From assembly GCA_041671045.1 (NCBI GenBank), contig JBAZCF010000005.1, positions 67,027-131,026 on the forward strand: 64,000 bases of DNA, given 5' to 3'. Below are positions 29,789 to 32,077 of the stretch, in pieces (position 1 is the stretch's first letter; every line of letters begins with the position of its first letter). A program made the translations under genes and the position numbers. Below the pieces are notes generated by a model. It searched no databases. It was given only the letters and a program-made list of their open reading frames with translations, and was not told the DNA's origin. Origin of the DNA: Parachlamydiales bacterium (GTDB lineage Bacteria; Chlamydiota; Chlamydiia; Chlamydiales; JABDDJ01).

Positions 29789-29908
29789 GCATCCCTTTTG
29801 TCCATTCTCCTAGGGCAATATTGGCATGCCGTTTGCAACTATAAGGATGGGTTGAATAATAGAAAGCTTTAAGGTGAAGCTTTCAAAGACCCATTTTAGG
29901 AGGTTGCC

Positions 29909-30121
29909 ATGTCTTGGATTACACGCATAGGATTAATATTTATATTGGCAATTGTTCCCATGGTAGGTTCTTTGAATGCTGCCCAAATCCAAAATACGGC
30001 TAATTCTTCTGCTAAAACAGGTGAAGACGTCGCTTGGTGGAGATATTGGGGCGGCCCCCGCCACGGTGGGTACTATTATCATGGACCATATTACCACTAC
30101 CGTCATTACTATTACTGGTAA
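29909..30121 (+). CDS. Small secreted Tyr/Trp/His-rich protein (70 aa).
   Basis: Perfect AGGAGG SD with a 5-nt spacer. Signal peptide MSWITRIGLIFILAIVPMVGSLNA. C-terminal WWRYWGGPRHGGYYYHGPYYHYRHYYYW has 10 Tyr in the last 28 residues. Confidence 0.7.
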   Translation: MSWITRIGLIFILAIVPMVGSLNAAQIQNTANSSAKTGEDVAWWRYWGGPRHGGYYYHGPYYHYRHYYYW

Positions 30122-30182
30122 GAAGGTAGTCCTGCGCGAGAATGCCGGAAGGCAGCAATTAAATGTTATCTAGGAGGTCATT

Positions 30183-30506
30183 ATGAAGCTCGGAAACATT
30201 AACAAGCTGTTAGTTGGACTATTAGCGTTAGGCTTATTCTGGATAGCTGAGCCAATGAAGGCTAGTGTTTCCTCTTCTACCGGGGATAAAGAGTTAGTAG
30301 CTGATGGATGGAGAGGCGGCCACAGAAGCTACAGGTCTTGGAACAATAACTATAACGGCGGTGGCTTTTATTATAGACCATATTATTACAATAGTGGTTA
30401 CTATAATAATTACTATACTCCATATAATAGTTATTATTCTCCATACTATTATAACTCGTATCCCTACGGTGGATCAGGAGGCTTATACTTCGGAATTGGT
30501 TTATAG
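30183..30506 (+). CDS. Small secreted Tyr/Gly/Asn-rich protein (107 aa).
   Basis: Perfect AGGAGG SD with a 5-nt spacer. Signal peptide MKLGNINKLLVGLLALGLFWIAEPMKA. The tail ..FYYRPYYYNSGYYNNYYTPYNSYYSPYYYNSYPYGGSGGLYFGIGL has 20 Tyr in the last ~66 residues. Confidence 0.7.
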   Translation: MKLGNINKLLVGLLALGLFWIAEPMKASVSSSTGDKELVADGWRGGHRSYRSWNNNYNGGGFYYRPYYYNSGYYNNYYTPYNSYYSPYYYNSYPYGGSGGLYFGIGL

Positions 30507-30516
30507 TAAGTAAGGA

Positions 30517-30632
30517 CGGCTCTCCCTTTTAAATGTCCACAAAGTTGTGGTTTCGTCCCTAAGAGGGTGGTAAATCCACCGATTTCAGTTCATTTGAACT
30601 AAGGACGAAGGGGAGAGCCGCCCCTTTTTTTT
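30517..30632 (+). ncRNA. Candidate structured RNA element / complex intrinsic terminator. A 14-bp closing helix encloses several hairpins and is followed by C4U8.
   Basis: CGGCTCTCCCTTTT (30517-30530) pairs with GAAGGGGAGAGCCG (30607-30620), including G-U pairs. Internal hairpins lie at 30537-30550, 30566-30580 and 30587-30600. CGTCC (30554-58) pairs with GGACG (30603-07). The T8 run is at 30625-30632. Folded by eye only. Confidence 0.4.
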
Positions 30633-30650: not shown

Positions 30651-31913
30651 TTATCCCCCAATGTCAATACCAAATACCCCTAAATTAATCATGATTTGGA
30701 TTGCAACTTCGAATGCAACAAATGCACCCAGTAAAATCAATATCATTTTACCACCGGGCAATTGGTTCTGTTCATTGAGCTGCATATGATACCTTCCTCT
30801 CCAAACCATTATTACAGGTAGAAGCCCGAGTAATAATGAACAACCGTATCCCCCGGCTAAATCCAACGCTTCCAGGAACAGATTGGATTTCCAAAGAGAG
30901 ATTAGGAAAGGCGGAAGGAAGACGAGCAAGCTGAGAATCCATTTGCCAGAACCTGATTTTTTTATTTTAAGACCGTCTGAAAGGAAATCAACAAGTCCTA
31001 ATGTCACTCCAAAAAATGAAGTCAATAAAGCGATAAAGGCAAATAAACCACTGACTAGGATAAGCCAAGGATTTTGAATGAAATACTTTAAAGGTTGGAC
31101 AGCGTTTTCGCCTTCATTTAAGGCATTCAAAAGTCCTTCATTTCCGAATGTGGGTACTATACCCAAAATGACGGTCTGCCAGATGATGTAGGTGACTAAA
31201 GGAATAAAGCTACCGATAATAATGGCTAAACGTATACGTCTTACGTCGTAATTCAGGTAATTTACTAATGTAGGCACTGTTCCTTGGTATGCGAATGCTG
31301 TAAATGAAACCGGGAGTGATAGGAGGGAAAGATTCCAATCTCTACGTACAAGGTGTTCAAAATTGATGTGGGGAATTCCCATGAAAATTATGCTGAAAAA
31401 AAGCGTGATCATTATCCCGACGAGGACTCCATTAACGGCGCTAACTAAACGGGTACCCATGATGACCAGGGTTCCAAAAATCCCAATAAATAGAGCAGTA
31501 CCGATATAAGCATGTCCTTGTATGCCTAAAATTTCTCTAATATAATCCCCGCAGCCTACGATATAAGCCAATGATAAGCAGTAGAAAAGAAAAATGTATA
31601 ATAGCCATGCAAAGGCCTTTCCCCATTTTCCGAGGGTCGATTCTGCCATAGAAACAATATTAGCATCCCTATGCAGCCATAGAGAGACTTCGAGAAATAG
31701 CAAACCTGTAGCAGTCATAAATAGCCAGCAGAGGGTATAGATGACAAGGGAAGGCAAAAAGCCCCCTAAACAGGTTAATACGGGCAGGGCCAGCATACCG
31801 CCACCGATGGTGGTACCGGCGATAAGCAAAGTCCCACCTAAAAGGGATCCATGTTTTTCCATAAAATTCTTATAAGATATTGGGTTTGGGCGGCTTAGAC
31901 TTGAAGCAAGCAT
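30651..31913 (-). CDS. tyrP: Aromatic amino acid (tyrosine/tryptophan-type) permease, HAAAP family.
   Basis: N-terminal GGTLLIAGTTIGGGMLALPV signature and ~11 TM segments. The ATG at 31913 gives ~420 aa. The track's TTG at 32051 adds a non-conserved-looking 46-aa extension. Confidence 0.8.
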   Translation of the reverse strand: MLASSLSRPNPISYKNFMEKHGSLLGGTLLIAGTTIGGGMLALPVLTCLGGFLPSLVIYTLCWLFMTATGLLFLEVSLWLHRDANIVSMAESTLGKWGKAFAWLLYIFLFYCLSLAYIVGCGDYIREILGIQGHAYIGTALFIGIFGTLVIMGTRLVSAVNGVLVGIMITLFFSIIFMGIPHINFEHLVRRDWNLSLLSLPVSFTAFAYQGTVPTLVNYLNYDVRRIRLAIIIGSFIPLVTYIIWQTVILGIVPTFGNEGLLNALNEGENAVQPLKYFIQNPWLILVSGLFAFIALLTSFFGVTLGLVDFLSDGLKIKKSGSGKWILSLLVFLPPFLISLWKSNLFLEALDLAGGYGCSLLLGLLPVIMVWRGRYHMQLNEQNQLPGGKMILILLGAFVAFEVAIQIMINLGVFGIDIGG

Positions 31914-32077
31914 TAGACTTCTTTCGAAAATCCATTTGATTGTTAAAATTGCCATTTTTAGCATCTTTATCGGCAAATTTTTCGACCATATGATTACATA
32001 TTCTCTTAAAATTTGACGAAAAATCTGCTCAAAAATCGTCAATTTTCTCAATCAAAGCGAGTTTCGAAAGAAGTCTA
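31914..32077 (-). promoter_or_regulatory. Putative tyrP 5' leader with a 16-bp perfect long-range inverted repeat that would sequester the SD.
   Basis: TAGACTTCTTTCGAAA (31914-31929) is the exact reverse complement of 32062-32077. On the mRNA the downstream arm UUUCGAAAGAAGUCUA abuts the AUG at 31913 and contains the GAAAGAAG SD-like sequence. Confidence 0.45.

Follow-up and report, generated by a model that had tools for sequence, protein, structure and literature searches.

The analysed stretch of DNA, hereafter the window, comprises 64,000 nucleotides of a chlamydial genome labelled by NCBI as a Parachlamydiales MAG, in agreement with the developmental-cycle organism supposed in an earlier, sequence-only reading. 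The GenBank annotation of the MAG includes the proteins MFA6916185.1 and MFA6916186.1, with locus tags WC222_07295 and WC222_07300. Two small genes, ORF1 and ORF2, are preceded by a sigma-54-type promoter motif and followed by a structured region and the convergent tyrP gene (Table 1). A renewed reading of the sequence returned exactly the coordinates, Shine-Dalgarno sequences, and protein sequences described before. The strong ribosome-binding sites (AGGAGG in both cases) and the dedicated terminator, a hairpin with a T-run downstream of the genes, are likewise present.

Table 1. Features of the ORF1-ORF2 locus, with positions counted from the first nucleotide of the window
Feature	Position	Strand	Description
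Sigma-54-type promoter motif TGGCATGCCGTTTGCA (-24 GG / -12 GC)	29822..29837	+	87 nt upstream of the ORF1 ATG
Predicted 5' UTR stem-loop, inner hairpin GAAAGCTTTAAGGTGAAGCTTTC	29847..29894	+	Same hairpin predicted in the window and in L002
ORF1 Shine-Dalgarno AGGAGG	29898..29903	+	Followed by the 5-nt spacer TTGCC and ATG at 29909; read from the sequence
ORF1	29909..30121	+	70 aa; signal peptide (approximately residues 1-24), linker with TGEDVA motif, W/R/G/H/Y tail ending in YYYW
ORF1 block with conserved synonymous sites	29945..30055	+	28 of 30 codons for identical residues unchanged in L002
ORF2 Shine-Dalgarno AGGAGG	30172..30177	+	Followed by the 5-nt spacer TCATT and ATG at 30183; read from the sequence
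ORF2	30183..30506	+	107 aa; signal peptide (approximately residues 1-27), ELVA motif, W/R/G/N block, Y/N/S/P/G tail, C-terminus GGLYFGIGL
Three-hairpin structure with GC-rich closing stem and U-run	30519..30632	+	Putative terminator or 3' UTR element between convergent genes
tyrP, Trp/Tyr permease gene, convergent	30651..32051	-	PF03222, E = 4.7e-96; likely start ATG at 31868

The predicted mature products of ORF1 and ORF2 are approximately 46 and 80 residues long, contain 22-25% tyrosine and no cysteine, and have an excess of lysine and arginine over aspartate and glutamate of +2, histidine left out. The 28-residue tail of ORF1, WWRYWGGPRHGGYYYHGPYYHYRHYYYW, includes 10 Tyr, 4 Trp, and 4 His, which confirms the count given in the sequence-only reading. 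Mature ORF2 contains 20 tyrosines among its 80 residues; histidines number four in the 46 residues of mature ORF1 and one in ORF2. The tyrosine background in the long ORFs of the 64-kb window is 3.2%, and the binomial probabilities of the enrichment are 9e-9 for ORF1 and 1e-14 for ORF2. The two ORFs reach 15 and 10 tyrosines per 30 residues, compared with at most 7 in other frames of the 64 kb, the antisense frame of ORF2 excepted. Besides tyrosine, ORF1 is enriched in Arg, His, Trp, and Gly, and ORF2 in Asn, Ser, Gly, and Pro. No tyrosine codon bias was found: the TAT:TAC ratio is 5:5 for ORF1 and 13:7 for ORF2, and TAT makes up 59% in the background. There are no tRNA genes within the 64-kb window.

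The pattern TGGCAY-N5-TTGCW occurs once in the 64-kb window, against 0.08 occurrences expected. The site upstream of ORF1 matches 10 of 11 consensus positions of sigma-54 promoters, and its GG and GC have the required spacing of exactly 10 nt. A perfect TGGCAC-N5-TTGCA is located at the same position in L003, from the closest relative, and in L002, a diverged contig with one ortholog pair (P0004 for ORF1 and P0002 for ORF2). The putative transcription start can be placed from this motif. The stretch that forms the stem-loop of the 5' UTR has 88-95% identity to L002, compared with a background of 72%. A search for terminators returned none between the two genes, and we therefore infer that ORF1 and ORF2 are co-transcribed. 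Both rpoN and ctcC are generally retained across the Chlamydiae. The genes under sigma-54 control in C. trachomatis belong to the mid-late and late classes; among them are those for many membrane proteins and for OmcA and OmcB, two cross-linked proteins of the envelope (PMC7482065). A promoter of this type fits the suggestion of the sequence-only reading that the products are envelope or matrix components of a developmental cycle.

The terminator-like hairpin with a T-run (30607-30627) is the closing stem of the larger conserved three-hairpin structure, in which 8 of 30 pairs have compensatory changes in an alignment of the window, L002, and L083. The 3' end of tyrP is positioned 144 nt from the stop codon of ORF2. 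Of all the features of the locus, the convergent tyrP, which the sequence-only reading had not noticed, is conserved best, and the tail-to-tail arrangement recurs in L002, L004, and many metagenome loci. Tyrosine is, to our knowledge, an amino acid that most chlamydiae must import. Since tyrP and ftsY are presumably near neighbours in C. trachomatis too, their position may be ancestral, and the adjacency to tyrP may reflect inherited gene order, not regulation. Leader peptides for amino-acid attenuation are encoded by short ORFs that precede the regulated gene on its own strand, together with terminator and antiterminator structures that alternate. The ORFs do not qualify as such leaders, as they are convergent with tyrP, separated from it by a terminator, and encode signal peptides. 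Genes for cytochrome bd oxidase are located close by in the window genome.

Both proteins carry a recognisable Sec-type export signal. Their N-termini are composed of a basic n-region, a 14-residue hydrophobic core with a mean Kyte-Doolittle value of 2.55-2.86 over 12 residues, and a small-residue site (SLNA/AQ and PMKA/SV, with the slash at the predicted cleavage position). Inspection of the sequences thus identified the elements expected of Sec/SPase I substrates: a basic n-region, a hydrophobic stretch within the usual 10-15 residues, and a c-region in which small residues occupy positions -1 and -3. An N-terminus of this n-h-c organization is present in every full-length member of the wider set described below, with mean Kyte-Doolittle values of 2.25-3.1 in the hydropathy scan. 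In the AlphaFold2 prediction of ORF2, residues 3-27 form a helix with a pLDDT of approximately 77, whereas the values elsewhere are approximately 40; the overall pLDDT is 48.8, no fold was predicted, and the signal helix is the sole confident part. The Sec-type signal peptides claimed previously are therefore borne out by hydropathy and by the predicted N-terminal helix, and the mature proteins appear from the modelling to be intrinsically disordered. An interpretation of the C-terminal aromatic residue as an outer-membrane beta-signal was dropped, as the last residue differs from member to member of that set (W, L, R, Y, F, Q, E, G, N).

The sequence-only reading had not recognised a described family, and the searches of Pfam, NCBIfam, and PDB and the exhaustive HMMER search agree with it. 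Hmmscan against Pfam-A at E<=1 returned no match for ORF2 and, for ORF1, only DUF4112, a match in the signal peptide that scores 12.3 bits where 23.3 are required. The families proposed for comparison, WXXGXW-repeat and RcnB-like, and also PXPV, were not matched in Pfam-A by ORF1, ORF2, or 10 relatives, which had irrelevant weak matches only. Neither ORF matched the plant glycine-rich protein family PF07172 (gathering threshold 30 bits); the relative from L104 reached 26.8 bits, under the cut-off of 30. Sequence searches of NCBIfam and PDB provided no family for the window proteins. The lactococcin 972 model TIGR01653 gave 16.5 bits for ORF1 (E = 0.0075), below its cut-off of 32.1, and no match for ORF2, P0002, P0004, or the L004 protein. 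A word-indexed search of 5.8 billion clusters recovered a single ortholog for each of the two ORFs, and the L004 protein retrieved only itself. An exhaustive HMMER search of 1.84 billion representative proteins returned only the known ortholog and a spurious S-layer-like repeat protein. We found no description of Tyr-rich secreted proteins of Chlamydiae in the literature, and no peroxidase, oxidase, laccase, or tyrosinase genes among the neighbours examined.

Genomic position revealed a wider set: in related, uncultured chlamydiae, the gap between tyrP and ftsY contains approximately 19 small ORFs of analogous composition. Members were defined by a signal peptide, a tail with at least 7 Tyr in 25 residues, and a location beside tyrP and/or ftsY on a chlamydial contig; they are found in the window, L002, L004/L096, L084-L089, L091-L095, L101, and L104. 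One to three analogous genes are present at 14 of approximately 20 loci with a TyrP at least 49% identical. The encoded proteins have a signal peptide, often a Gly/His block, and then a Tyr-rich tail, and the genes are usually arranged tail-to-tail with tyrP, at stop-to-stop distances of 45-216 nt across diverged loci. In L084-L087 the adjacency to tyrP is kept though another neighbour replaces ftsY, and in L089 and L093 other genes are inserted between the Tyr-rich gene and tyrP. The proteins reach lengths of 196-356 aa. Long (G)nH repeats, with His at 8-15%, are present in many relatives, and GGGH and GYGG repeats also occur among them; the Gly/His block of many relatives is absent from ORF1 and ORF2, and it is the richness in tyrosine, not histidine, that is constant across the set. 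A sigma-54-type match is located 81 nt upstream of the Tyr-rich gene in the more distant relative L092. Most other members lack the motif in their upstream region, and type-A relatives have a sigma-70-like promoter and a long conserved leader instead. Rfam contains no match for this leader or for the 5' UTR, the ORF1 block, and the 3' structure of the window.

Analogous genes thus occur at an equivalent genomic position in related chlamydiae, as judged from gene order and composition. The sequences drift but composition and architecture are kept, a pattern to be expected of structural proteins of low complexity. BLASTP aligned ORF1 with ORF2 at E = 0.26 and found no alignment between ORF1 and the L004 protein. 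Hhalign gave 95% probability over only 8 columns, which correspond to the TGEDVA motif at the same position in type-A relatives, and 94% probability over 12 low-complexity columns. A hydrophobic-hydrophobic-Ala motif before the G/R block is present in 12 of the 19 members (13 counting EVA of L004). Any homology among ORF1, ORF2, and the wider set would rest on these short motifs. A search of GTDB genomes anchored on FtsY added L004 as the only further carrier, since most chlamydiae do not have tyrP beside ftsY. The closest relative, represented by L003 and L083 from one metagenome, yielded no third ortholog since both contigs end at the Tyr-rich region. Gene sets of this kind, defined by composition, escape homology searches: exhaustive HMMER saw none of the approximately 19 analogues.

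ORF1 is 76-79% identical to P0004, and ORF2 is 60% identical to P0002 in the local BLAST alignment and 77% identical in the MAFFT alignment. The dN/dS ratio of ORF1 relative to its L002 ortholog is approximately 0.23; in the tail of ORF2, dN is 0.061 and dS is saturated, and dS is also saturated in the flanking genes. Every indel between the ORFs of the window and L002 is a multiple of three, and other pairs of the wider set have pN/pS of 0.23-0.39. Judged from these substitution patterns, ORF1 and ORF2 are real protein-coding genes, as the sequence-only reading had argued, and are under purifying selection. On a contrary view, the two frames would have no function and would either have arisen by chance in a low-complexity stretch rich in TAY or be remnants in decay. 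The scarcity of homologs (one ortholog each among the 5.8 billion clusters), the low-complexity sequence, and the break of the assemblies at the locus in a relative would suit such an origin; it is nevertheless strongly disfavoured and hardly credible, given a purifying selection that is strong in the annotated frame, where synonymous sites are saturated, the exclusively in-frame indels, the presence of consensus Shine-Dalgarno sequences, promoter, and terminator, and the signal-peptide-bearing analogues with pN/pS below 0.4 in many diverged loci. The block within ORF1 is conserved beyond its protein sequence, with a codon identity of 28/30 compared with a background of 41% (P = 2e-9, window versus L002). 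Its 5' part, approximately codons 13-23, pairs with the Shine-Dalgarno sequence and AUG in the minimum-free-energy folds of both the window and L002 mRNAs. The cause of this synonymous conservation is unexplained.

OmcA is a small (approximately 9 kDa), exported, late-made protein extremely rich in one cross-linkable residue. ORF1 and ORF2 resemble OmcA in their small size, predicted export, and extreme enrichment; a sigma-54-type motif precedes them, and sigma-54 promoters were found on omcA and omcB (PMC7482065). OmcA and OmcB are structural material of the spore-like elementary body. However, their enriched residue is Cys and not Tyr, ORF1 and ORF2 lack mature Cys, a lipobox, and sequence similarity to them, and the sigma-54 motif is present in only part of the wider set. 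With no Cys in their mature parts, ORF1 and ORF2 do not belong to the cysteine-rich outer membrane complex proteins. In Bacillus spore coats, which provide a precedent for Tyr-rich proteins in a resistant type of bacterial cell, the Tyr-rich CotC and CotU form high-mass assemblies, and dityrosine was detected between other coat proteins (PMC7944565). CotC and CotU are likewise small, bacterial, and very Tyr-rich; assembly in a resistant dormant-cell coat is a feature of CotC and CotU. Cot proteins lack a signal peptide, reach the coat from the mother cell, and have many Lys and Asp residues, whereas ORF1 and ORF2 are predicted to be Sec-exported and are rich in Gly, Asn, Ser, Arg, and His; no sequence match to Cot proteins was found with Pfam-A and NCBIfam. 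Eukaryotic Gly/Tyr(/His)-rich proteins, such as plant GRPs (PF07172), apicomplexan oocyst-wall Tyr-rich proteins, squid-beak His-rich proteins, and FUS-like low-complexity domains, share several traits with the window proteins: a signal peptide leads into a low-complexity region that is predicted to be disordered and whose composition would favour pi-stacking, coacervation, or peroxidase cross-linking. The window proteins, however, are bacterial, much shorter, and without a significant match, and the likeness is compositional and does not imply common descent. Periplasmic W/Y/G-repeat proteins of Proteobacteria (WXXGXW, PXPV, RcnB-like) are also small, with a signal peptide and aromatic/Gly-rich repeats, but differ in that the window proteins and their relatives fall outside these families in Pfam-A.

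We tentatively favour the explanation that ORF1 and ORF2 form a bicistronic operon under sigma-54 control, the products of which are Tyr-rich, disordered proteins that are secreted, self-associate as part of the envelope or matrix, and are probably made late in the cycle. The sigma-54-type promoter, structured 5' UTR, two consensus ribosome-binding sites, and structured terminator would delimit one transcription unit. The Sec pathway would export the two small pre-proteins, the signal peptides of which would then be cleaved. Outside the cytoplasm, in the periplasm or envelope or possibly in the inclusion lumen, the mature proteins would most likely form a self-associating material held together by dense Tyr/Arg/aromatic contacts, to which oxidative Tyr-Tyr cross-links might add, although dityrosine here is speculation. 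Synthesis would take place mainly while sigma-54 is active. By analogy with Chlamydia trachomatis, for which alone the timing of sigma-54 is known, this may correspond to the stage late in the cycle at which reticulate bodies convert to elementary bodies. Tyrosine could be supplied by the adjacent permease. The very small size of the proteins and the absence of a tyrosine-oxidising gene nearby count against this explanation, as do the lack of the sigma-54 motif before most other members of the set, the missing Gly/His block in ORF1 and ORF2, and the shortness of the motifs that link the two to the set.

It is unlikely, though conceivable, that the products are secreted bioactive peptides, antimicrobial or host-directed, similar to cationic peptides rich in Gly/His or Gly/Tyr that plants and invertebrates produce, and aimed at competitors or, speculatively, at the amoebal host. 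The mature products are small, predicted to be secreted, and carry two more basic than acidic residues, relatives have GGGH and GYGG repeats, and ORF1 has a weak, sub-threshold likeness to the Sec-dependent lactococcin 972 family. That match is far under the cut-off, however, Sec export alone would reach no further than the periplasm, no immunity, transporter, or processing genes are adjacent, and the long-stable position among housekeeping genes is unlike that of typical bacteriocin loci. Binding of Ni, Zn, or Cu in the periplasm, or redox buffering and oxidant scavenging through His, Tyr, and Trp, is more speculative, and we regard it as rather improbable: the long (G)nH repeats with 8-15% His in many relatives, the four histidines of mature ORF1, and the closeness of the cytochrome bd oxidase genes in this genome speak for it, but ORF2 has a single histidine, the constant of the set is Tyr, RcnB-like and other metal-chaperone families were not matched, and the cydAB neighbourhood is not kept at other loci.

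We similarly give little credence to a function of the ORFs as a tyrosine-demand sensor, in which translation of the Tyr-dense stretches would report the charging of Tyr-tRNA, and stalling would alter transcription or termination in the shared 3' region and so tune tyrP. The tail-to-tail adjacency that recurs over diverged loci and survives the replacement of ftsY in L084-L087, and the conserved structured element between ORF2 and tyrP, are consistent with a sensor, and the nucleotide-level constraint on ORF1, together with the possible occlusion of its Shine-Dalgarno sequence, suggests translational control. Classical leader peptides, however, are located upstream and on the same strand, whereas these ORFs are convergent with tyrP and a strong terminator lies between them. 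Moreover, a sensor would not need signal peptides, mature-region motifs, Gly/His blocks, or lengths of 196-356 aa, other genes intervene before tyrP in L089 and L093, and the tyrP-ftsY position may be ancestral if the gene order presumed for C. trachomatis holds.

The preferred reading of ORF1 and ORF2 as envelope or matrix proteins can be extended to a more far-reaching proposal, which we consider a long shot: in a clade of environmental chlamydiae, sigma-54-controlled, Sec-exported Tyr low-complexity proteins may form part of the elementary-body envelope or the inclusion matrix, as a tyrosine counterpart of OmcA and OmcB held by aromatic stacking or dityrosine, with their genes beside the importer because their synthesis needs imported tyrosine. 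With its compact promoter, its pair of tiny genes, and the transporter next to them, the locus offers three experimental handles for tests of sigma-54 developmental control and of tyrosine dependence in environmental chlamydiae. If the proteins are envelope or matrix material, they would add a bacterial, Sec-exported case to the Tyr-rich structural and phase-separating proteins, which are known mostly from eukaryotes and Bacillus spore coats, and the infectious spore-like form of some chlamydiae would be stabilised by a non-disulfide chemistry, unlike that of pathogenic Chlamydia.

The two adjacent ORFs of the window have exactly the coordinates and ribosome-binding sites that the sequence-only reading gave for them. 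The final 28 residues of ORF1 contain ten tyrosines, four tryptophans, and four histidines, and mature ORF2 has 20 tyrosines among 80 residues. Against a tyrosine background of 3.2%, taken from the long ORFs of the window, the binomial P values of 9e-9 for ORF1 and 1e-14 for ORF2 confirm that the tails are extreme; no other reading frame of the window comes near this density, the antisense frame of ORF2 excepted. As judged from sequence and hydropathy, both N-termini consist of a basic n-region, a hydrophobic core of 14 residues, and a small-residue site, in keeping with the signal peptides proposed earlier. The dedicated terminator of that reading corresponds to a hairpin with a T-run downstream of ORF2. 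AlphaFold2 confidence is confined to the signal helix, and the pLDDT of about 40 in the mature part is consistent with disorder.

Features of the Tyr-rich locus and of related contigs
Locus	Feature	Position	Strand	Remarks
Window	Three consecutive large ORFs	20229-25090	+	575, 585, 450 aa; no Pfam match at E ≤ 1e-6
Window	Sigma-54-like site TGGCACATCACTCGCA	24201-24216	-	second-best in window
Window	sucD, sucC	upstream of pair	-	neighbours
Window	ftsY	upstream of pair	+	neighbour
Window	Candidate sigma-54-type promoter TGGCATGCCGTTTGCA	29822-29837	+	upstream of ORF1
Window	ORF1	29909-30121	+	70 aa; AGGAGG, 5-nt spacer before start
Window	ORF1 codons 13-49	29945-30055		conserved synonymous block
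Window	ORF2	30183-30506	+	107 aa; AGGAGG, 5-nt spacer before start
Window	3' element	30519-30632		between convergent ORF2 and tyrP; three hairpins, GC-rich closing stem, U-run; about 115 nt
Window	tyrP	downstream of pair	convergent	Trp/Tyr permease, PF03222, E = 5e-96
Window	cydB, then cydA	beyond tyrP, downstream of pair		neighbours
Window	ORF	38327-39622	-	431 aa; no Pfam match at E ≤ 1e-6
L004	Sigma-70 promoter region	5010-5290		near-consensus TTGACA-17-TATAAT, followed by conserved leader element
L101	Sigma-70 promoter region	4290-4560	-	as L004
L093	Sigma-70 promoter region	3200-3480	-	as L004
L095	Sigma-70 promoter region	3411-3571	-	as L004; partial
L088	Three low-complexity secreted ORFs	3341-5582	-	between tyrP and ftsY
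L003	Contig end	3957-4056		metagenome Ga0207072
L083	Contig end	4689-4817		metagenome Ga0207072

The database entries for the pair (MFA6916185.1 and MFA6916186.1) are hypothetical proteins of a Parachlamydiales MAG, and the earlier view that they belong to no described bacterial family held up. Pfam-A, including the W/Y/G-repeat and RcnB-like families that had been named for checking, gave nothing relevant at E ≤ 1, and PDB sequences gave no match. The sole NCBIfam match was of ORF1 to lactococcin-972, at a sub-threshold 16.5 bits (cut-off 32.1). An exhaustive HMMER search of 1.84 billion representatives, with a profile of ORF2 and its ortholog P0002, recovered only P0002 and one spurious repeat protein. 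Neither protein belongs to any named family tested, and no account of such Tyr-rich secreted proteins in Chlamydiae was found in the searched literature.

A search of 5.8 billion protein clusters detected one ortholog per ORF and no more, and the two lie together, in the same gene order, on Logan contig L002. This genome has diverged well from that of the window: the FtsY and TyrP proteins are 92% and 87% identical, with synonymous sites of both saturated. The ORF2 tail has a dN of 0.061 and an omega below 0.05, the omega of the whole of ORF1 is about 0.23, and all six indels inside the ORFs are multiples of three. Low values despite synonymous saturation, together with in-frame indels, indicate that ORF1 and ORF2 encode proteins and that purifying selection acts on their annotated frame, as the earlier reading of them as real genes had it; that they are non-genes is extremely unlikely.

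Conservation of ORF1 extends to synonymous positions. In codons 13–49, 28 of the 30 amino-acid-identical codons are the same in L002, compared to a background of 41% in ftsY, tyrP, and cydAB (P = 2e-9), and in the predicted folds of the two mRNAs codons ~13–23 pair with the SD and AUG. Translational control may account for this conservation, as may an RNA element that overlaps the gene or a tract of recombination. The 3' element keeps its architecture in L002 and L083; 8 of its 30 pairs are compensatory across the three genomes, and it may serve as more than a terminator alone. Neither the ORF1 block nor the 3' element has a match in Rfam.

The region upstream of ORF1 is 88–95% conserved, against 72% for the coding background. 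It contains the only match in the window to the sigma-54 pattern TGGCAY-N5-TTGCW (chance expectation 0.08), located 87 nt from the ORF1 ATG. Perfect TGGCAC-N5-TTGCA sequences occur at the same distance in L002 and in a third relative, L003, the contig of which stops at the start codon. In L092, which is more distant, a match precedes the Tyr-rich gene by 81 nt, and just three further matches occur in ~1 Mb of fetched loci. The second-best site in the window agrees with the consensus at 10 of 11 positions but has TCGCA at -12; it lies antisense within the 450-aa ORF and probably matches by chance. The sigma-54 regulon of C. trachomatis comprises mid-late and late genes, among them omcA, omcB, and a large number of genes for membrane proteins (PMC7482065), and it is mainly by this analogy that we favour a late, envelope-related role for the pair. 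The majority of other Tyr-rich genes in relatives are without the motif. Type-A relatives have a sigma-70-like promoter and a long conserved leader in its place. This leader, a structured non-coding element of ~200 nt between promoter and Tyr-rich genes, has 9 of 53 predicted pairs compensatory and no match in Rfam; it is either a riboswitch-like or unknown leader element or a separate small RNA.

Related loci were collected using FtsY as an anchor in GTDB genomes and TyrP in metagenomes. The FtsY anchor gave one extra carrier, L004 (FtsY 54% identical), in which ftsY and convergent tyrP enclose just one 89-aa ORF, its product having a signal peptide and a tail of His, Tyr, and Arg; the remaining 12 chlamydial ftsY loci have neither tyrP nor a Tyr-rich ORF. 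Of ~20 metagenome loci with TyrP at least 49% identical to that of the window, 14 harbour small Tyr-rich ORFs (one to three each), in most cases directly past the tyrP 3' end on the opposite strand, and no TyrP-anchored locus below 48% carries one. Every full-length member begins with a signal-peptide-like sequence and is preceded by a ribosome-binding site of GGAG type, and many have a (G)nH block ahead of the Tyr-rich part. Two C-terminal styles recur, a Tyr run and G-[IL]-Y-F-G-[FW]; ORF2 terminates in LYFGIGL. A hydrophobic-hydrophobic-Ala motif (DVA, LVA, LIA) directly N-terminal to the Gly/Arg block is found in 12 of the 19 members, and in 13 when the EVA of L004 is included. Other pairs within the set have pN/pS of 0.23–0.39 with saturated pS. 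BLASTP among ORF1, ORF2, and the L004 protein gave nothing significant; profile comparison reached ~95% probability, yet only over 12 low-complexity columns or over the eight residues of a TGEDVA motif whose position the two profiles share. Because formal homology is weak, we treat the set as positional and architectural, with common descent probable but unproven.

The three consecutive L088 ORFs encode a Gly/His/Tyr protein of 196 aa, an Asn/Ser/Tyr/Gln protein of 356 aa that repeats SYSGNQMY units, and one of 107 aa, the last preceded by a short tandem repeat of GGACGAAAT type. For the closest further relative, ftsY and tyrP lie on L003 and L083. Each of these contigs stops precisely at the Tyr-rich region, which suggests that the low-complexity locus is hard to assemble and under-represented in MAGs.

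Carrier FtsY proteins are closest to one another (56–62%) and next to named Chlamydiota MAGs (52–57%). The order glmM-glmS-tyrP in L084–L087 and L089, which is also that of Chlamydia trachomatis, supports a chlamydial origin of the contigs. The genes are flanked by cydAB-tyrP and ftsY in the window and L002, by glmS-tyrP and a TPR protein in L084–L087, and by tyrP and ftsY in L088, L096, and L101. Outer contexts vary on both sides, and one (L093) or two (L089) unrelated genes can separate the Tyr-rich ORF from tyrP. In C. trachomatis, too, tyrP and ftsY lie close to each other, so the gap between them appears ancestral. The adjacency may reflect functional coupling, through imported tyrosine supply or regulation, or inherited synteny in one clade, which the data cannot separate. 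A leader-peptide-type tyrosine sensor for tyrP is improbable, because a terminator separates the convergent genes and the products have export signals as well as motifs conserved in their mature part.

Our best explanation is that sigma-54 would drive ORF1 and ORF2 as one bicistronic unit encoding two Sec-exported, disordered, Tyr-dense polypeptides. Beyond the cytoplasm these would self-associate into material of the envelope or a matrix, probably at a late stage of the developmental cycle. The complete chain is tentative; we have high confidence that these are genes and that their products are exported and disordered, and low confidence in assembly and cross-linking. No oxidase capable of dityrosine formation was found among the neighbour genes of the loci examined. 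That the products are instead bioactive secreted peptides is unlikely, and a function in metal or redox buffering is quite doubtful. By working logic, two systems come closest. One is OmcA/OmcB of Chlamydia, late exported proteins that belong to the sigma-54 regulon and have a high content of a single cross-linkable residue; the other is CotC/CotU, Tyr-rich proteins of the Bacillus spore coat. Dityrosine links have been found between other spore-coat proteins (PMC7944565). The likeness to eukaryotic Gly/Tyr/His-rich structural and phase-separating proteins is compositional. These are genuine genes, unusual and undescribed, whose role is wholly inferred. What appears to be new is the presence in Chlamydiae of Tyr-rich secreted proteins of a putative structural type, encoded at a conserved locus with a candidate sigma-54 promoter.
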